Part shown: positions 1,898 to 20,000 of the stretch, in pieces
Numbering within the stretch: the first letter of the stretch is position 1
Layout: each line of letters starts with the position of its first letter
Virus record (IMG/VR): IMGVR_UViG_3300033148_002355
Direction: 5' to 3' (one strand)
DNA length: 20,000 nucleotides
From: an uncultured virus (IMG/VR IMGVR_UViG_3300033148_002355)
Taxonomy: Duplodnaviria > Heunggongvirae > Uroviricota > Caudoviricetes
The notes under the pieces: model-generated
Databases searched by the model: none
Told to the model about the DNA's origin: nothing
What the model saw: the letters and a program-made list of their open reading frames with translations, nothing else
Translations under genes and position numbers: made by a program

Positions 1898-2344
1898 TTA
1901 AAATCTTAAATCTTCATTTCCTCCTCCCATAGTCCTATAAATCAAATTATCTATATGTTCACTATGAGTTGACTTCTTATTTGTACCTGTATCAATTAAC
2001 GTTTGATTCCCTTGAGTTACTAAAGGTATCCTATGTCCTCCTTCTCCGTATATCGTTCCATCTATTATATCTTCACATACCAACTTAGTTATCTTTTCAA
2101 ATACATCGTTCAATCCGTTCATTTTAGATGTTACTAAAACATATATTATAATCTCACTTAACAACTCTGAAGCTTTGACTATATTTCTGTCTTGGTTAAA
2201 GTATATATAATTTTCAATAAGGTCCTCCATCTTCTCTCGAAACTCTTGTAATTTAACATCATTTAAGATAACTGGTTTTCTAGGTATTTCATGATTACCT
2301 AATATCTCTGCTATTGTCCTGATTTTTTTATCTAATGACTTCAT
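1898..2344 (-). CDS. Hypothetical protein, possibly a degenerate MazG/PRA-PH-type all-alpha NTP pyrophosphatase
   Basis: ATGA overlap with the helicase gene. Helical pattern (MEDLIENY...NIVKASELLSEIIIY...GLNDVFE) resembles this fold but lacks the acidic motif. Confidence 0.4.
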   Translation of the reverse strand: MKSLDKKIRTIAEILGNHEIPRKPVILNDVKLQEFREKMEDLIENYIYFNQDRNIVKASELLSEIIIYVLVTSKMNGLNDVFEKITKLVCEDIIDGTIYGEGGHRIPLVTQGNQTLIDTGTNKKSTHSEHIDNLIYRTMGGGNEDLRF

Positions 2345-4155
2345 ACTTTTTGAAATCTACTGGTTATACTTTCTTTGATATTGTTCTTCTTCTCGTAATC
2401 TTGTATAAGCGACTTGAATAGTTTCTTCTCCAGGTTCCCATATTCTACTATCCCTGCTTTCTTGTGATCTATAGCTGAGTTAATATCATCTGTTTTACTT
2501 TCAATAAGGTTATATATCCTCTGGTCAATACTATCTGGTATCATTGTATACATTACCTCTACATCTTTAGTTTGCCCCATTCTGTGAGCCCTTTTATATG
2601 GTTGCTCTAATAAATCGGGGGTGAATCCCATATCCATAAACACTACCTTACGAGCATTAACTAAGTTAATACCAATACCTGCAGCTATAACTTGACCTAA
2701 GAACACTTGTACCTCTGTACGTTGCTTAAACTTATCAATACGGTTCCTTCTTTTAAGACTACTAACACTTCCATCAATAAGAACAGCTGTATTACCTAAC
2801 TCATCTTTTAATTGATTAAGTACAGTTTTAAAGAAACTGAACACTATAACCTTTTCTCCTTCCCTGTTAAGCTTTCTGATTAACTTGAGGACATCAGGTA
2901 TTTTAGATTCACTACAAAGCCTGTTAAGAGTCATTATGTTACCTCTACTCTTCATTGAAGCTTTCCTTTTAGTACTCCTCAAGTAAACTAATCTCTCTGT
3001 GTTTCTAGTACCTGTCCCTATTTTGTTTTTAATCCTATGTTCTACTTCTTTAATTTCAGCAGTTACCTCTGCAAGTAGCTTCTGAGCGTCATACATCTCT
3101 TTTATAGCCTCTTGGTACTTCTTTGTACTCTTATCATTCATTTCGAAGTAGTAGCTCTTAATAACGAGCTTAGGTAAGTCTAACTCTTCTTCTGATTTCT
3201 TTCTAAGCATCCAGTTGGATAACTTTAATCTAAAGTCTTCTACATTCTTAATACCTGTAACTTTTTGACCGTTCCCTTTAGCGTACCTTCTTTTGAAGTC
3301 TGTAAAGTTTTTACCCATTGGGTGTTTGCTTAAGTGTAGTAAAGCGAATATATCAGTTATTCTGTTCTTGATAGGTGTGCCTGTTAAGAAGGTAACTCTT
3401 GCTTTAGGATACTTGTTCAAAAGCTTCCTAACTTGCTTGAACTTATCTGTACCCTTATTTTTTATATAATGAGCTTCATCTATGATAATGTGATCGATTG
3501 GGGACTTGGTTATATGCTTGATGTACTTCTCTACACTTTCATAGTTAACTATTACAAATGACTCTTTCATTACACTGAACATGCATTTATTCCTGTCAAG
3601 CAAAGTAAAGAATAAAGGGTTAAATCCCCACTCTTCTGTAAGGTCTGTATACCAGTTCCATTTAGTTAATGAAGGGCAAATGATTACTGTACGTTTTAAG
3701 TTGAATAGTTTAGTAAGTGAAGCAGCGAATAGTGTTTTACCTAATCCTTGTTCAAATGCACATAAGTTGAATTGTCTATTTCTGAAGGACCATAAAGCAG
3801 CAGCTTGATACTTCATTAGTTTCTTTGGATCACCTTCCTTGTCAAATAGTCCTTCGTATAAAGTCGCGGGAGAATACTTAGCTACAAATTCTTTAGCATC
3901 TTTTAAGTATATCCTTTTAATAAGATCAACAAATACTTTCTTCTTATCTACATTGAACTTATTGTCCATTAAGTTACGATCAACGTACTTAACGTATTTA
4001 AGTAATGCTTCTTTACACGTTATACGAATATCTACAACTACCTTTCCTTTGTCTTTGACAGTCATATCAAGACATTCAGCCGTTAACAGCTCCTCGTCTG
4101 AGAAGTGTTTTTGGAACAAGAGCCTCTTGTCGTCTTTACTTAACGTTATCTTCAT
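2341..4155 (-). CDS. SNF2-family (SF2) DEAH helicase/ATPase
   Basis: KYQ Q-motif, EQGLGKT, IIIDEAH, TGTPIKN, VIVFS, IDGS, GIGINL, KRAHRMGQ. Confidence 0.93.
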   Translation of the reverse strand: MKITLSKDDKRLLFQKHFSDEELLTAECLDMTVKDKGKVVVDIRITCKEALLKYVKYVDRNLMDNKFNVDKKKVFVDLIKRIYLKDAKEFVAKYSPATLYEGLFDKEGDPKKLMKYQAAALWSFRNRQFNLCAFEQGLGKTLFAASLTKLFNLKRTVIICPSLTKWNWYTDLTEEWGFNPLFFTLLDRNKCMFSVMKESFVIVNYESVEKYIKHITKSPIDHIIIDEAHYIKNKGTDKFKQVRKLLNKYPKARVTFLTGTPIKNRITDIFALLHLSKHPMGKNFTDFKRRYAKGNGQKVTGIKNVEDFRLKLSNWMLRKKSEEELDLPKLVIKSYYFEMNDKSTKKYQEAIKEMYDAQKLLAEVTAEIKEVEHRIKNKIGTGTRNTERLVYLRSTKRKASMKSRGNIMTLNRLCSESKIPDVLKLIRKLNREGEKVIVFSFFKTVLNQLKDELGNTAVLIDGSVSSLKRRNRIDKFKQRTEVQVFLGQVIAAGIGINLVNARKVVFMDMGFTPDLLEQPYKRAHRMGQTKDVEVMYTMIPDSIDQRIYNLIESKTDDINSAIDHKKAGIVEYGNLEKKLFKSLIQDYEKKNNIKESITSRFQKV

Positions 4156-4178
4156 TTCTGTTTTCTGTTGTCTTAATG

Positions 4179-4231
4179 GTTAACTAATTTTAAAAACAAT
4201 TTCGTTCCTCAACAATTTTTACTATTGCGTT
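4179..4231 (+). other. Leading (attI-like) recombination site A1
   Basis: GTTAAC-TAATT-TTAAAA...TTTTAC-TATTGC-GTT; arms identical to the site at 19020-19065. Confidence 0.6.
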
Positions 4232-4490
4232 ATAAAACATCTGTTTGTTTACTCCTTTCAAAACCGTCACAACCTAAGCATTGTGATTCACACCTAACCC
4301 CTCCAACTTCTTCATTAGAGCAAACAAACGATTTCATAACATCAGGTATATTTAAATTTTTCAACTCTGTCCATGCGTGAGCATAAGCTTGTGATTTTCC
4401 ATCACTTCTGCCTTTTTGGTATTCACTACTATCATCCCTTGGTGTATTAGCACCTTTTTTAAATACTTCTAAAATTTCGTTAATATTCAT
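4230..4490 (-). CDS. Cassette-borne hypothetical protein with C-terminal CxxxCxxC
   Basis: 86 aa. Its stop codon overlaps the GTTA core, and the ORF reads through the left arm of site A2. Confidence 0.7.
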   Translation of the reverse strand: MNINEILEVFKKGANTPRDDSSEYQKGRSDGKSQAYAHAWTELKNLNIPDVMKSFVCSNEEVGGVRCESQCLGCDGFERSKQTDVL

Positions 4491-4535
4491 CTGTGTAAAT
4501 TTATTCGTTAAAAATCAAAACATACCTGCAACATT
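4338..4535 (+). other. attC-like site A2 with a long coding loop and a mutated core (ATT)
   Basis: AAC-ATCAG-GTATATTTAAATTTTT (4346-4361) pairs 13/16 with AAAAATCAAAACATAC (4510-4525), followed by CTGCAAC-ATTACCTAC. Confidence 0.55.
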
Positions 4536-4561
4536 ACCTACAAGTGCTAAGTCGGTAGGTA

Positions 4562-5140
4562 CTAATAATGTTTCTTCTTAAATTCTTCTGCCATTATATC
4601 CTGCATATTACCTTTGTAATATCGTGCTGTTTCAGGGTTACTAATTTCATATATCCCTGAACCCATGTTTGGTATGATTAATCCACAAGTAAGAAAATCA
4701 AAACATAAAGCTATGTTTTCTTCTCGTATTAAAAACTCTTCTTTAGTTAACCTAAGCATTTCATCTACGTTATCGCACATTTGAATATACTCATCATATT
4801 TTTCGGTTATGGCTTCCAATTTCTCAGAGGTAATACATTCTTTAATGTCAGGATATTTTTTGATAGCTTCTATTGTTTTGACCCAATAACTACCTATGCG
4901 CTCTCTATCTCTATTTAGTCTATCCATTTCATAAGCCATAAAATGCTTATCGTCCTCCATTTGTTGTTTAAATCTTAGTGCAGGTGTGTCAGTTTCAAAC
5001 GAAACAAACTCATTATTCACTATCCAATTTTTATCATCAATCTTTGTGATGTTATTTTTATATTCGCTTTTACTACTTAATGTTTTTGAGAAGCTCCATC
5101 CCATTAAGCCAAATAATCCTATCATCAATATTATTTCCAT
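4562..5140 (-). CDS. Cassette-borne hypothetical protein with N-terminal membrane anchor
   Basis: 192 aa with hydrophobic N-terminus MEIILMIGLFGLMGWSF; flanked by ATTACCTAC (4533) and GTAGGTAAC (5175). Confidence 0.75.
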   Translation of the reverse strand: MEIILMIGLFGLMGWSFSKTLSSKSEYKNNITKIDDKNWIVNNEFVSFETDTPALRFKQQMEDDKHFMAYEMDRLNRDRERIGSYWVKTIEAIKKYPDIKECITSEKLEAITEKYDEYIQMCDNVDEMLRLTKEEFLIREENIALCFDFLTCGLIIPNMGSGIYEISNPETARYYKGNMQDIMAEEFKKKHY

Positions 5141-5174
5141 TTTCTTAATTTAATCAGTTTATAAATCCGCACCA

Positions 5175-5240
5175 GTAGGTAACACTATCTATATGCAAAA
5201 CTCCGTTGCACTACGTTCAGCACATAGCCAAACCGTTAAC
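5175..5240 (+). other. attC-like site A3
   Basis: GTAGGTAAC-ACTAT-CTATATGC...GCACATAG-CCAAACC-GTTAAC. Confidence 0.75.
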
Positions 5241-5464
5241 TACTTCTCTATAATCTCAATCAAAGTAAGTGTGTCAGGATCGCATAACATGGCTAATGGC
5301 TGACCTTTAATATGCACTTGCATTTTACCGTTAACCATATCTTTATTGTGATGTGTTATTCCTACTTTACCAGTGTAGGTTTTTACTTTGAATCCGGTAC
5401 TACCAACTCTAAAGTTGTGATCTAAGTACCAAGCGTTTGGATTTGTCTCTTCTGTTATTTTCAT
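5240..5464 (-). CDS. Hypothetical protein
   Basis: 74 aa ORF in operon orientation. Confidence 0.65.
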   Translation of the reverse strand: MKITEETNPNAWYLDHNFRVGSTGFKVKTYTGKVGITHHNKDMVNGKMQVHIKGQPLAMLCDPDTLTLIEIIEK

Positions 5465-11470: not shown

Positions 11471-11692
11471 TTAATTAGGTAATAGACTAAGCATATTGTC
11501 CCAAACGCATACACTGTCATACATTCCATTACCTGAGTACGATATTGCTCCTACATTTACAATATCAAACTTTTCACCGTTTGGAATCTCTACTGTTTCG
11601 GGTGTTATGCTTGTTATTAATACTTTTCTATCGCTTACATTACATAAGTAAATGCAACCTTCTTTTAATTGTGATATTTTTAATGTTTCCAT
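11471..11692 (-). CDS. Cassette-borne hypothetical protein
   Basis: 73 aa; flanked by GTTGTGCTTA (11464) and TAAGCACAAC (11701), a perfect 10-bp inverted repeat. Confidence 0.75.
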   Translation of the reverse strand: METLKISQLKEGCIYLCNVSDRKVLITSITPETVEIPNGEKFDIVNVGAISYSGNGMYDSVCVWDNMLSLLPN

Positions 11693-11969: not shown

Positions 11970-12027
11970 GCACTACAACAATTTGTATAGTACATACTTC
12001 GTACAGCCCCATACAAGGGGCGTTATT
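11970..12027 (+). other. attC-like site C3
   Basis: GCACTACAAC-AATTT-GTATAG...CATAC-AAGGGGC-GTTATT. Confidence 0.75.
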
Positions 12028-12043
12028 TTTTATTTAGCGGGGA

Positions 12044-12520
12044 TTAATATCTTACTCCTGTTTCTAAAAAATCATATTCATTAACTTCTAAACTTTCCTT
12101 AATACATTCATCACTCATTAAGTATTCATACTCTTTTTGTAGCATATTAATATACTGTAACCCTATACTATCTTTAAACATCCTGATAGTACCTTCTTTT
12201 TGCTCTAAACCTTTCATTACTCTCTCTCTCACTTGTTTCTCAAAACATTTAGCAGTGATATACGTTTGACATTCTTTCCCGTGCTCTGTCAATATTGTAT
12301 TAACAATTTCATCAATAGGCTTATTTAGTACTATTTCAATCTCTCGCCTGTCAATGTCAAAACTTTTAATTGTTGCACCTATATTCTCCATATCATCATA
12401 GATGCAATTCCACCACTCGCAGTATTCTACGTTAAAATATCTGTTATCTTCAATTGCTTTCTCTTGTGCTTCCTTGCTTAGTTCCTTGAACTTGTAAAGG
12501 TTTAATTTGATTGTTTTCAT
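12044..12520 (-). CDS. Acidic phage hypothetical protein
   Basis: 158 aa; LYKFKELSKEAQEKAIE...EWW..IYDD...EYEYLMSDE..NEYDF pattern, recalled from phage early regions. Confidence 0.75.
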   Translation of the reverse strand: MKTIKLNLYKFKELSKEAQEKAIEDNRYFNVEYCEWWNCIYDDMENIGATIKSFDIDRREIEIVLNKPIDEIVNTILTEHGKECQTYITAKCFEKQVRERVMKGLEQKEGTIRMFKDSIGLQYINMLQKEYEYLMSDECIKESLEVNEYDFLETGVRY

Positions 12521-12751
12521 AGCTTCTATTGATTTTTATTTGTAGTTATGTGTATTTATTGGTTTTTAAAATTCTCCTACTGTTACATTAACTGTTATCT
12601 CTTCGCCTTCCTCCGTGCAACTAGTCCAAGTAAAAACAACTTGTTCGCTGTTCGCTCCTATTCCTTGTTTCATGTATTCAAGGTCGCTTTGTGTAAAGTT
12701 TAATTTGATTGTTTTCATAGCTTCTATTGATTTTTATTTGTGGTTATGTGT
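12493..12751. repeat. ~60-bp direct repeat (12493-12553 and 12692-12751) covering the leader and first codons of two adjacent genes
   Basis: 44-bp identical core gtttaatttgattgttttcatagcttctattgatttttatttgt at 12500-12543 and 12698-12741. Confidence 0.9.
12566..12718 (-). CDS. Hypothetical protein (50 aa)
   Basis: Manual: MKTIKLNFTQSDLEYMKQGIGANSEQVVFTWTSCTEEGEEITVNVTVGEF. Confidence 0.6.
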   Translation of the reverse strand: MKTIKLNFTQSDLEYMKQGIGANSEQVVFTWTSCTEEGEEITVNVTVGEF

Positions 12752-12801
12752 GTTTGTATACTTGTATGTAAAAAAAGTGCTTAGAGTCCTTTAAAATAAG
12801 T

Positions 12802-14739: not shown

Positions 14740-15460
14740 GTTTGCTGTGGTAGTAAGGGTTGTGGGTTGTTTGCTGTGGTATATTACGGTGTAAATTAGT
14801 GGTGTTTGCTGTGCTTCTATTCTCTCTCTATTACAGAGATAAATTAATTGTATTGATCAGGTAGTATAAGAGTGAGCACCAACACAGCAACCGAGCACAT
14901 ATAACAGGGTCAAATGTTGTCCTATAATTAACATTATGTTAAATAGGATTTTAAACGCCTGATAACAGTACAACACAGAGCACTTTAAAAAAAGACCTCT
15001 CCCCTCCCCTACCATATGCCATCTGTAAAATAGTATCAACCTATTCACTAAGGCATAGGACACCCCCTTACCCGTTTACATTGCTTTTGTATATTATTTG
15101 GATTATATAACGCACTTTTTATTCTTGGATAGGGGGGGTACCTTATTATACGTATACTGTCTGGCAGACAGAAACTTCCAAAACCACAGCAAACAAGGTC
15201 CTACCACAGCAAGCCCTACTCTAGTGTACAGCACAGCAAACGAGTATCTATCCACTCCTTATATCACAGCAAACCGTAAACTGGTTACGGAGTAAGTATT
15301 AACAACTGCAACTAATCAAGCGACTAATACATTAGTCCCTCAACCTCTCACGTTGCATTTAACGCACTTAATATATAAAATGGCATATAGATAAGGGTAC
15401 ACCCCTTTAGAGTGTCTTAGGAGTCAGCATATAGCAAACCGTAACAGTTTACGGTGTAAA
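14740..15460. repeat. Head-to-head clusters of CACAGCAAAC repeats in a long non-coding region (candidate origin or packaging/terminal region)
   Basis: GTTTGCTGTG at 14740, 14769, 14804; CACAGCAA(A/G)C at 15185, 15205, 15232, 15265; partial copies at 14883 and ~15432. Confidence 0.8.
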
Positions 15461-17024: not shown

Positions 17025-17135
17025 TTATTTTTTATTGGTTTGGTTAATAATTAGCCCGTCACAATCTGAGCATTTGTTTTTTTTAATTTCTACATCGTCC
17101 CTATCGTAAATAATACAGGTGCAAATTTCATTCAT
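17025..17135 (-). CDS. Small Cys-containing protein (36 aa)
   Basis: Manual: MNEICTCIIYDRDDVEIKKNKCSDCDGLIINQTNKK (CxC...CxxC). Confidence 0.45.
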   Translation of the reverse strand: MNEICTCIIYDRDDVEIKKNKCSDCDGLIINQTNKK

Positions 17136-17159
17136 TTGTTTATTTTTTATTGGTTAATA

Positions 17160-17618
17160 CTATTCAAAACTCTTTTTCTGGTGCAACATAAATTCCAACT
17201 GCTCATTTGCCTTAATCAAATCCTTTGTTTGTTGGCGGTCTTTCGCTGCTAGATCATACATTTGAATACCCTGCTCAAAAGCTGTTATTAATTTTGCTGC
17301 GTCCCACGGTTTATTCAAAACTTTGAAAACCTTTCCCTCATTTACAGCCTCAATAACTACACTTATGTCTGAATAGCCAGTGAGTAACATTCGTAAAACA
17401 TCAGGATAGTCTTTTGCAGCCTTCTTTAAAAACTCACATCCATTCATTTTAGGCATTCTTTGGTCGGATATTATAATTTTAATATCGTTGTTTTTAAGAA
17501 TCTCAAAGGCTTCTACTGCTGAATCAGTTATAAAAACCTCGTATTCTCTTCTAAAGGTTGCCTTAAAAACGTTTAAGTTTGATGGTTCATCGTCTAAGTA
17601 AAGAATTTTGTTTTTCAT
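17160..17618 (-). CDS. Stand-alone response regulator (receiver domain plus short coiled coil)
   Basis: ILYLDDE, phospho-acceptor ISDQRMP, LLTGY, NKPW. Confidence 0.93.
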   Translation of the reverse strand: MKNKILYLDDEPSNLNVFKATFRREYEVFITDSAVEAFEILKNNDIKIIISDQRMPKMNGCEFLKKAAKDYPDVLRMLLTGYSDISVVIEAVNEGKVFKVLNKPWDAAKLITAFEQGIQMYDLAAKDRQQTKDLIKANEQLEFMLHQKKSFE

Positions 17619-17744: not shown

Positions 17745-18149
17745 TTATTTTTTAATGTTTATAGGTTGCCAATCTGTTATCCCGTTGCTATATTCATGCC
17801 CTTTACTATCACGCCAGTAAAAATCATATTCTTTGACAGCTTTTGACGGTAATCGCTCTTGGCATCCATATTTTACACACACAACACTACCATTATAAAT
17901 AGCTAGTACATAATCTGAATATTTTCCCCAGCTATGCTCATGTGTTAATTTAGGTAATTTTTCATCAACACTAGCCCAATCTTTATCTTTTTGATATTTC
18001 ACCATCCAAGTAGTAATGATTACCCATTCACCTCTTGTAAAACCTTTACTAAGACCTTCACCTTCATTGTATTGTGAGGCTTTTTCTGTTTTAAAAAACT
18101 CTTTTGTAAATAGTTTCATTAAAAACTTTCCTGCTCTAAATTTTTTCAT
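17745..18149 (-). CDS. Protein with C-terminal DUF551-like domain
   Basis: WASVDEKLP...SDYVL...ITDWQPI matches the WISV..RLP...VTHWMPL pattern. Confidence 0.65.
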   Translation of the reverse strand: MKKFRAGKFLMKLFTKEFFKTEKASQYNEGEGLSKGFTRGEWVIITTWMVKYQKDKDWASVDEKLPKLTHEHSWGKYSDYVLAIYNGSVVCVKYGCQERLPSKAVKEYDFYWRDSKGHEYSNGITDWQPINIKK

Positions 18150-18157
18150 TGTTTTGT

Positions 18158-18394
18158 TTATTGGTTTAACACTTCTTTTTTATACGCCTCAATTAGTTTA
18201 TCCCCTACATAGTGTTTATTATTTCCTGTAGTGTACCATGTTAGGAAGTTTTCCTGAGCTTGTTGGTAGCCTTTTATAAATGCTTTTCTATAGTTGTCAG
18301 TTGGTTGTTCACTCTGTACCGTACCTATACCTTCCTCGTTACTATAAGGATATTGCTTTTCCGCTAACTTTTCAATTTCTTCCTTTCTCATCAC
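18158..18394 (-). CDS. Hypothetical protein
   Basis: 78 aa; EIEKLAEKQYP...RKAFIKGYQQA. Confidence 0.65.
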   Translation of the reverse strand: MMRKEEIEKLAEKQYPYSNEEGIGTVQSEQPTDNYRKAFIKGYQQAQENFLTWYTTGNNKHYVGDKLIEAYKKEVLNQ

Positions 18395-18625
18395 TTATTG
18401 TTTATTGGTTAATCTATTATCTTGTTTTACTTTGTCTATATTAAGTGCTACAATTTGATAAAGTTTTTTGTATTTTAACGTTTCAAGGTATCTTTTAGCG
18501 TCCTTTTTTCTAAAGAATATTATACCCGTGTGAAACCAGTCGTCACTCTTTACATGTCTCACTTCCCAAAGTATATTACTAGCTATTGTAGCTCCTGAAC
18601 TTTTAATTGTGTAAGCTTTCATCAC
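18395..18625 (-). CDS. Hypothetical protein
   Basis: 76 aa, abuts its neighbours. Confidence 0.65.
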   Translation of the reverse strand: MMKAYTIKSSGATIASNILWEVRHVKSDDWFHTGIIFFRKKDAKRYLETLKYKKLYQIVALNIDKVKQDNRLTNKQ

Positions 18626-18940
18626 TTATTTTTTTTTGGTTAATACTCCTCGTTTGCTCACATCAATATAATCTTTACATTCTGATATGCTACCTTTAAA
18701 AACCTCCTCTTGTTTTTCTTCTTGTAAGAATCTTAAATCAGCATGAGTTATTCTAATAACTCTAAAAATATTATCCTTGTGAAATTCTATTCTATATTCC
18801 ATCACTTTTGGTTTTAACTGAGAAATAGACTCTTTTAGTTTTTTTCCATTTTCTCCTTGTTTTAAATATTCTGTTTCGTCTATGTGGTCGCACTTGTCAA
18901 ACCCTGCATAATAACAATCTTTGCAAACTTGTTTTTTCAT
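18626..18940 (-). CDS. Hypothetical protein
   Basis: 104 aa with N-terminal CxxC...CDH. Confidence 0.65.
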   Translation of the reverse strand: MKKQVCKDCYYAGFDKCDHIDETEYLKQGENGKKLKESISQLKPKVMEYRIEFHKDNIFRVIRITHADLRFLQEEKQEEVFKGSISECKDYIDVSKRGVLTKKK

Positions 18941-19019
18941 AGTTTTTTTTAAATTAATATTTCTCTATTTTCTTAACACGTTATTAATTTTATGTTAACG
19001 TTTTGCGGTTTTCTTAACA

Positions 19020-19065
19020 TAACTAATTTTAAAAGGCATTGAAACGCCCTTTTACTATTGCGTTA
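19020..19065 (+). other. Leading (attI-like) recombination site E1
   Basis: TAAC-TAATT-TTAAAAGGC...GCCCTTTTAC-TATTGC-GTTA; arms identical to A1. Confidence 0.6.
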
Positions 19066-19075
19066 GCTACAACTA

Positions 19076-19861
19076 CTAGACGAATACAACGTTACCTTCT
19101 TTGTGAGAAACAAATCCATCGTCTAACATTTTAAACCATTCTTCTTTTGTTGCTTTGTGTTTGCCAAATGTTGTAGCATTATCTTCACACCAATCACATA
19201 ATTTTTCCAATGTTTCAAATACAGGTGAGCTTGGACTTCCTTCGCTAGTCGTTTCCCATAATTGAAAACCTTCGCCCTTTGGTGGGTCATACTCTTTCCA
19301 ATTTTCGTAATCAGATTTTGCTCTTGGATGTTGCCATTTTTCACCTTCACCATCACAATGAATACATAAGTGAGATTTTCCCTGCCTTTTTAATTTAGCT
19401 TTTATCACAATTGAGCAATTAAGGCTGTCATGTCCCATACCTTTCAAGTTCCATTCGTTAACCTCTTTTGCTGTTGGTTTATATCCGTTATCAAATGGCA
19501 ACCAAGAGTTTCCCCCATCCTCAATTTTTTTCCTTACTATTTCTCTGTGTTCATCTGTTAGCGGTACTCTTGTAAAGTCCCAAAGTCTATCGGATTCTAT
19601 TAATGCATTTACATCTTCCTGTGTCAAATTGTTATTCCACGCAGAAGCATTATATATAAAACCTTCACGGAATGGATTAGGCTTGTAATCTTCCTTTCCC
19701 CATCCATACCATTCATTTTCTAATTCTTTATAATCCTTCGACCATCCAAGACCATCACATTCTACACATTCGTGTCGTTGGTGTGGGTTTATGTATCCAC
19801 TCCATGTTTTGCCAATTTCCCATTTGAAATCTAAAGCAACTCTTTTTAATTCTCTTCCCAT
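19076..19861 (-). CDS. Cassette-borne phage protein with two CxxCxGxG motifs
   Basis: CVECDGLG, CIHCDGEG, GFQLWETTSEGSP.SPVF; flanked by GTTAGCTAC (19062) and GTAGCTAAC (19903). Confidence 0.8.
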   Translation of the reverse strand: MGRELKRVALDFKWEIGKTWSGYINPHQRHECVECDGLGWSKDYKELENEWYGWGKEDYKPNPFREGFIYNASAWNNNLTQEDVNALIESDRLWDFTRVPLTDEHREIVRKKIEDGGNSWLPFDNGYKPTAKEVNEWNLKGMGHDSLNCSIVIKAKLKRQGKSHLCIHCDGEGEKWQHPRAKSDYENWKEYDPPKGEGFQLWETTSEGSPSSPVFETLEKLCDWCEDNATTFGKHKATKEEWFKMLDDGFVSHKEGNVVFV

Positions 19862-19902: not shown

Positions 19903-19964
19903 GTAGCTAACAATACCTATATGTCAGCTTCCTAACGTCAGCCGAACACATAGCCGACCTCGTT
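19903..19964 (+). other. attC-like site E2; another cassette probably follows beyond the window
   Basis: GTAGCTAAC-AATAC-CTATATGT...ACACATAG-CCGACCTC-GTTAGC; closely resembles A3. Confidence 0.78.
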
Positions 19965-20000
19965 AGCAAACATTTATAAAAATGTATTGAAATTCTGTCG

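Follow-up and report, generated by a model that had tools for sequence, protein, structure and literature searches.

Several gene arrays in the window, the whole 20,000-nt stretch of DNA that was analysed, begin with a short structured site, and these sites, designated A1, C1 and E1, are likely to be attI-like cassette acceptors of a Bacteroidota integron-like system that uses attC-like hairpins and a Xer-like tyrosine recombinase. The best reading is that each acceptor is an orphaned hairpin of the attC family that serves as a multi-copy stand-in for attI and is acted on in trans. Crossover occurs at G|TT, the sites behave only as acceptors, and their spacing is that found at the heads of host arrays; the A1-type site works like attI without being a classical-integron attI. 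The window is phage DNA with genes on the minus strand, including a polymerase exonuclease, a helicase and an exonuclease, and the hosts of such phages are Flavobacteria-type bacteria.

A1 (4181..4232, plus strand) is a hairpin at the head of array A, with a left spacer of 5 nt, a right spacer of 6 nt and a G|TT crossover between positions 4229 and 4230. E1 (19020..19065, plus strand), which heads array E and has its crossover between 19062 and 19063, carries the same arms. Exact matching confirmed the preliminary description in that the arms of A1 and E1 are identical and the loops differ: the 15-nt arm begins at 4181 and 19020, the 16-nt arm at 4217 and 19050, each occurs exactly twice in the window, and all copies lie on the plus strand. 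A composition-based estimate puts the chance of two such arm pairs in 20 kb at about 2e-7. C1 (11413..11467, plus strand; 6/6 spacing, crossover between 11464 and 11465) heads array C and shares the geometry of A1 and E1 with another arm sequence. The inner arm lies 6 nt from GTT in all three sites, and the ending TTTAC-6 nt-GTT ascribed to them also proved correct, as did the longer spacers of the internal sites (7 nt in A3, C2 and C3, 8 nt in E2). Like attC sites, A1-type sites are imperfect palindromes of the form AAC-N5-L..L-GTT whose bottom strand folds better than the top, with weak folds (-2.7 kcal/mol, z 0.08, for the bottom strand of A1; -4.5 kcal/mol, z -1.08, for E1). The base of the loop covaries among them (A-T in 11, G-C in 7 and C-G in 1 of 20), and a search of Rfam returned nothing at the gathering threshold.

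Each of the three sites is the leftmost of its own chain in the window and heads cassettes that lie antisense. The bases that follow the GTT of one site are complementary to those that precede the AAC of the next, a link that amounts to 10 nt both from C1 to C2 (11707..11792, plus strand) and from C2 to C3 (11976..12025, plus strand), and to a 9-nt core from E1 to E2 (19908..19965, plus strand; 5/8 spacing). Complementary cores of this kind are what circular cassettes leave when they enter at G|TT. Array A has weaker links, with 8 of 10 positions matched by eye on each side of A2, and is older-looking. A2 is a long attC-like site (about 200 nt; 4337..4535, plus strand) in which, by eye, the left arm lies within a gene, the gene start falls in the loop, the right spacer is 7 nt and the core GTT has become ATT. 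A3 (5180..5238, plus strand), the final site of array A, is an ordinary attC-like site with 5/7 spacing and a crossover between 5235 and 5236. Array E may continue beyond the end of the window. The site finder recovered A3, C1, C2, C3, E1 and E2 among many weaker intragenic hits and missed A2 as well as A1, whose stem is interrupted.

All cassette genes are read from the minus strand. The first in array A (86 aa, 4230..4490) has its stop over the GTTA of A1 and its start inside A2; neither it, nor the second cassette gene of the array (192 aa, 4562..5140), nor the first of array C (73 aa, 11471..11692) has a PHROG match, and the first of array E (261 aa, 19076..19861) has one weak match of unknown function. 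The left neighbour of A1 is a fixed gene rather than a cassette, encoding a 604-aa DNA helicase (2341..4155, minus strand) that is 78% identical in a complete 71.7-kb relative, locus L042; the fixed right neighbour of array A (74 aa, 5240..5464, minus strand) has a homologue there that directly adjoins the helicase. With the flanking genes side by side and the hairpin absent in L042, site and array are missing together. The same relative has a right flank resembling that of C3, without an array, and on their outer right sides arrays A and C end in what look like plain attG-type targets. The annotated phage collection contained no match to 4150-5300. Two sequences beside the arrays deserve mention. 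To the left of C1, 11395-11416 resembles 12025-12050 on the right of C3, through a shared T-run and an 8-nt word, a likeness that looks like a partial target duplication at the arrival of array C. To the left of E1, an inverted repeat with a 6-nt centre stands between two 11-nt direct repeats (18963-19019), related copies of which occur near arrays in L038, L021, L027 and L032; if this repeat is itself a site, E1 is not strictly first.

The exact two-arm pattern was present at 5 viral and 30 metagenome loci, and the right arm alone at 5 genome loci, two of which are phage-like contigs of one Flavobacteriaceae assembly. The other three genome matches lay inside coding genes and were dropped as chance, and four loci from looser viral patterns (L007, L172, L173, L175), without cassette context, were also taken as chance. 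After removal of 5 refetched viral loci, 5 metagenome duplicates, the near-duplicate L029 and 5 loci without the pattern, the scan of relatives for both arms that had been proposed from the sequence gave 35 copies, the window's two included. These copies have 17 different 12-nt left contexts, across which the arms are invariant, and 30 different right ends; since they come from related phages with 17 left contexts, they do not amount to 35 independent events.

The acceptor behaviour of the A1-type site is seen most clearly in what it lacks on its left. The left core of an attC is complementary to the start of the cassette to which the site belongs. A cognate core of at least 8 nt within 1.6 kb on the left was found in 0 of 35 A1-type copies (null from shuffling, 1.7) and in 26 of 40 ordinary attC-like sites of the same loci (null 2.6), the test being weaker for the 11 copies whose left sequence is shorter than 580 nt. 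The picture is similar for the outer cassette-end signature to the left of AAC, which occurs in 1 of 35 A1-type copies and 32 of 40 ordinary sites. On the right, a cassette-type end follows GTT in 29 of the 35 copies, compared with 33 of 532 background GTT. Nine loci with one left context (a 115-aa gene, complete in 7 of them) have nine different right ends. The loci L002 and L023 are identical over 1,874 nt leftward and differ by one 818-bp attC-bounded cassette exactly at G|TT; whether that cassette was gained or lost, the crossover lies at G|TT. No empty acceptor was seen. Several of the first cassettes in L001, L023, L033, L038 and L043 look, from motifs judged by eye, like DNA methyltransferase genes.

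An attI provides a primary insertion point at G|TT at the head of an array, and A1-type sites are first in all three window arrays and in 21 of 27 testable copies. The statement that they are always first therefore needs qualification, being correct for the window and failing in 6 of the 27, in which a complete left gene has its stop codon on an attC-type crossover, one gene leftward. These six comprise L003, L034, L036 and L047, where the gene encodes a response regulator, and second copies in L027 and L028; three other pattern flags for such a crossover were judged false, and L047 was rechecked. The preliminary description had named occurrence at internal array positions as evidence against its idea, and the exceptions realize this in part; they fit two arrays one gene apart. 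At the position homologous to E1, L003 retains only the right half-site, with cassettes still following it; this locus had been considered as proof of a true attC, an argument dropped after the cognate-core count. The window has a response-regulator gene of its own (17160-17618), by eye a stand-alone receiver protein, with PHROG matches of unknown function; the gene recurs in L003, L031, L034, L035, L036 and L047, in changing contexts and often between cassette sites.

The spacing of the acceptors can be compared with that of integron-like arrays in host chromosomes. The host search started from the family of the Flavobacteriaceae assembly that contains L043, and the ordinary-site model matched 15 of 41 genomes of that family. 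These arrays carry sense genes, and several adjoin a tyrosine recombinase that falls below the integron-integrase cut-off (TIGR02249, 186 vs 265 bits, matched in two stretches) and has relatives in 81 of the 121 family genomes searched. Of 97 listed places, 40 were selected on score and on the room left on the contig, and array heads were taken from these and from three earlier loci; 15 of the 43 were left out, seven because no attC was found, six because the first attC had been missed, one for want of a cognate, and L069, whose head, judged by eye only, does not fit the 6-nt rule. TA.-N6-GTT is present in 27 of the 28 heads kept, and TA at the 7-nt register in none. Among internal sites with a 9-nt cognate, the spacer measures 7 or 8 nt in 115 of 118 from hosts and in 73 of 76 from phages (58 of 61 once the two seed patterns are set aside), and 6 nt in 1 of 118 and 1 of 76, respectively; judged by position alone, 24 of the 118 host attC likewise have TA at the 6-nt register. 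Calling spacers from hairpins alone, a procedure made noisy by TATA repeats, gave 6 nt for 18 of the 28 heads and 4 nt for 7.

With 6 nt each, A1, C1 and E1 lack the 7-8-nt spacer of Bacteroidota-type attC sites, and as hairpins followed by TA.-N6-GTT, like 27 of 28 host heads, their geometry is that of the host's equivalent of attI. Short hairpins are found at most host heads too, so folding does not separate heads from attC. A head-vs-attC matrix placed A1 and E1 at -0.6, between the host-head 10th percentile of 6.6 and the attC median of -15; as 408 of 530 random GTT score above 0, it mostly measures attC-likeness, and it was dropped as support because heads are not separated from random GTT. 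The right-arm scan of genome contigs found no exact chromosomal copy of the A1 arms, and model R2, limited to 55 scored candidates in each genome, gave a match in 1 of 101 genomes, located on two phage-like contigs; as far as sequence comparison can tell, the arms of A1 and E1 do not appear to be copied from any host head found. Four arrays on host chromosomes (L072, L073, L075, L079) start with a short hairpin and TAT-N6-GTT and have no recombinase gene seen alongside, which indicates that stand-alone acceptors exist in chromosomes too.

No tyrosine recombinase was detected in the window, in 83 further loci, almost all of them phage-type contigs, or in 5 phage records. Across the window and the 83 loci, no A1-type site adjoins an integron-integrase gene as an attI does, and within the 20-kb window the attC clusters have the CALIN arrangement, with no integrase nearby. 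The docking sites probably rely on the enzyme of the host; as the search covered 20 kb of this phage genome, a recombinase encoded elsewhere in it is conceivable. A 28-nt sequence in a long non-coding stretch at 14915-14943 is a possible dif/Xer-like site that may serve integration or dimer resolution by host XerCD. As to ancestry, A1-type sites have loops that are also seen in ordinary attC sites, and L043 contains a 6-nt-spaced attC whose right arm is that of the A1-type sites, whose inner stem is fully paired and whose cognate core measures 8 nt; L174 and L176, both at contig ends, resemble it. Such likenesses suggest that the acceptor may descend from the minority of attC sites with a 6-nt spacer. 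In L171, a complete phage of 70.7 kb without a tyrosine recombinase, a C1-type site follows a fixed gene and stands at the head of an array, and this second arm family (C1, L171) appears to have converged on the same role and spacing. The genes directly adjoining the L171 site on its left are, by eye, presumably those of an ammonium transporter and a P-II nitrogen regulator. Heads of this class are not the rule in phages: walks from ordinary sites in 42 viral loci led to 34 phage chain ends, of which only some 4-5 looked by eye like hairpin heads with 6-nt spacing, the remainder being in many cases plain sequence and in many others breaks in the chain walk, and most other phage arrays start differently.

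The earlier proposal of a distinct class of insertion platforms equivalent to attI holds in that the sites own no cassette, that DNA changes exactly after GTT, and that the spacing is that of host heads. Equivalence to attI is limited by the six copies that are not first and by the loops, the AAC-N5 left arm and the right arm shared with L043, which point to an attC subfamily. These attC-like traits could mean that the sites are simply stranded ordinary attC sites of the 6-nt subfamily, recombining as folded single strands and heading arrays through cassette loss, the match in spacing with host heads being incidental. Bottom-strand folding, the covarying hairpin and an intermediate matrix score agree with such an origin, as does the true attC of L043. 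It is nevertheless unlikely, because a 6-nt spacer is rare in working attC and nearly universal in host heads, whose own hairpins deprive folding of discriminating value, because the arms stay invariant over so many left contexts, and because the C1/L171 arm family converges on the same role and spacing.

Two further explanations are both highly improbable. The site might be the attC of the left-hand gene, and a normal internal site of a longer array, as the six stop codons that overlap an attC-type GTT would allow; the two ends can be aligned by eye with gaps in L003, and more weakly in L034, L036 and L047. For the window this idea was already largely refuted: cognate cores are missing on the left in all 35 copies, the left genes include the 604-aa helicase and the conserved 115-aa gene with fixed neighbours, and L042 keeps the helicase without the site. 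Nor is much to be said for a regulatory repeat that combines a terminator with a translation-start signal for minus-strand genes and has no role in recombination. In many copies the start codon of the next gene touches or overlaps the left arm (at 0-3 nt in 10 copies), and the terminator scan flagged the inner C1 hairpin as terminator-like on the minus strand; A1 and E1 are, however, absent from the 13 terminator-like sites of that scan, and the exact cassette difference at G|TT, together with cognate cores on the right, requires recombination. The left arm may double as a translation signal for the next gene, which could be why its conservation is so strong.

If the sites are orphaned attC-family hairpins that stand in for attI, their history might have run as follows. 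A member of the 6-nt minority of attC sites would have lost its own cassette and become fixed just upstream of phage genes. Its 6-nt spacing would then have allowed the right arm to be read as a double-stranded attI-like core, so that cassette circles could enter at the first position, with a Flavobacteriaceae host supplying the recombinase in trans. The site would have reached new gene junctions within blocks, by G|TT crossover or by short-homology exchange, a spread that would give several independent arrays per phage. With cassette genes antisense, the site lies at the downstream end of each gene run and would need no cassette promoter. A T-rich junction repeat ending GGT(T)TAA lies between minus-strand genes at 17131-17168, 18142-18180, 18386-18424 and 18618-18656 and encodes the last residues of those genes; a repeat of this kind stands immediately before the A1-type sites of L001, L004 and L039, and one of another kind before those of L018, L027 and L031. 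Such repeats may move modules, and the acceptor with them. In the 9.7-14.4 kb region, a T-rich motif ending GCGGGG, possibly a phage promoter or a junction repeat, has six intergenic copies upstream of minus-strand genes (9776, 10950, 11206, 12037, 13617, 14344), and a 61-nt direct repeat with 95% identity (12497-12557 and 12695-12755) covers the starts of two neighbouring genes.

A bolder and more doubtful proposal is that this phage clade has domesticated a portable attI of about 50 nt that is itself delivered by site-specific recombination at G|TT, is run by a non-IntI recombinase of the host and starts new cassette arrays ahead of many genes of different kinds. Delivery of this kind is suggested by the A block, which has at each end a copy of an 8-bp direct repeat with GTT as its first bases, in the G|TT register (4179..4186, plus strand, and 5235-5242), and whose removal would leave an intergenic gap of 28 nt, compared with 23 nt in L042. 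Were it true, a single spacer base would convert a site from donor (attC, with 7-8 nt) to acceptor (attI, with 6 nt) or the reverse. Phages with their own docking sites and a borrowed host enzyme offer a testable answer to how integrase-less arrays begin and grow, and the spacer rule, with 6 nt at heads and 7-8 nt inside, is a way to find the attI equivalent in a barely described Bacteroidota system.

Among known systems, a classical attI, which recombines as double-stranded DNA, resembles the A1-type site in being the first site of an array, in crossing over at G|TT, in receiving cassettes and in owning none. The A1-type site differs from it in having no adjacent integrase gene and apparently no cassette promoter, in occurring in several copies per genome, in keeping an attC-like hairpin and in heading antisense genes. 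The likely enzyme for A1-type sites lies below the TIGR02249 cut-off, unlike IntI, which carries a specific extra segment. The core of classical integrons is given as G|TTRRRY (PMC9892861). Integrase-less attC clusters (CALINs) have been reported in virulent phages, including Polaribacter phage P12002L, one attC of which IntI1 was able to recombine with attI1 (Qi et al. 2023, PMC9892861). These CALINs and the arrays of the window are both integrase-less attC clusters in phages of Flavobacteriaceae; the dedicated head site seen in the window is not described for virulent-phage CALINs in the consulted part of that article. In attG/SALINs, cassettes enter genomes away from attI, at plain cores (10.1101/2022.09.11.507474). 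Such targets are unstructured and, as far as the consulted part of that preprint goes, share a GWT core only, whereas A1-type sites are conserved, structured elements of 45-55 nt, with fixed arms and a hairpin, that are reused repeatedly.

Integrons are known from Bacteroidota, which appear among the phyla listed in PMC8618304. In the rAID-1 clusters of Bacteroidales, an XerD-family recombinase is followed by a gene array with integron-like intergenic repeats, and motifs were sought separately just after the recombinase and between the genes (10.1101/471110). Those clusters are chromosomal, with sense genes and the enzyme in cis, unlike the phage arrays of the window, and the available portion of their description gives no crossover point, spacer rule or phage copies. 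The literature search, in which subscription papers were thinly covered and supplements fell outside the scope, turned up no account of a phage head site in multiple copies, nor of the spacer rule. The heads of Flavobacteriaceae host arrays are also close to the A1-type site, both being short hairpins that end in TA.-N6-GTT and are associated with cassette ends and attC sites of the same family. Most host heads have ATAAT or ATAAG, then 4 nt and the hairpin, and end in TAT-N6 (24 of 28), unlike A1 and E1, which have AAC-N5 on the left and TAC-N6 on the right. The feature is real, and it belongs to a known kind of system.
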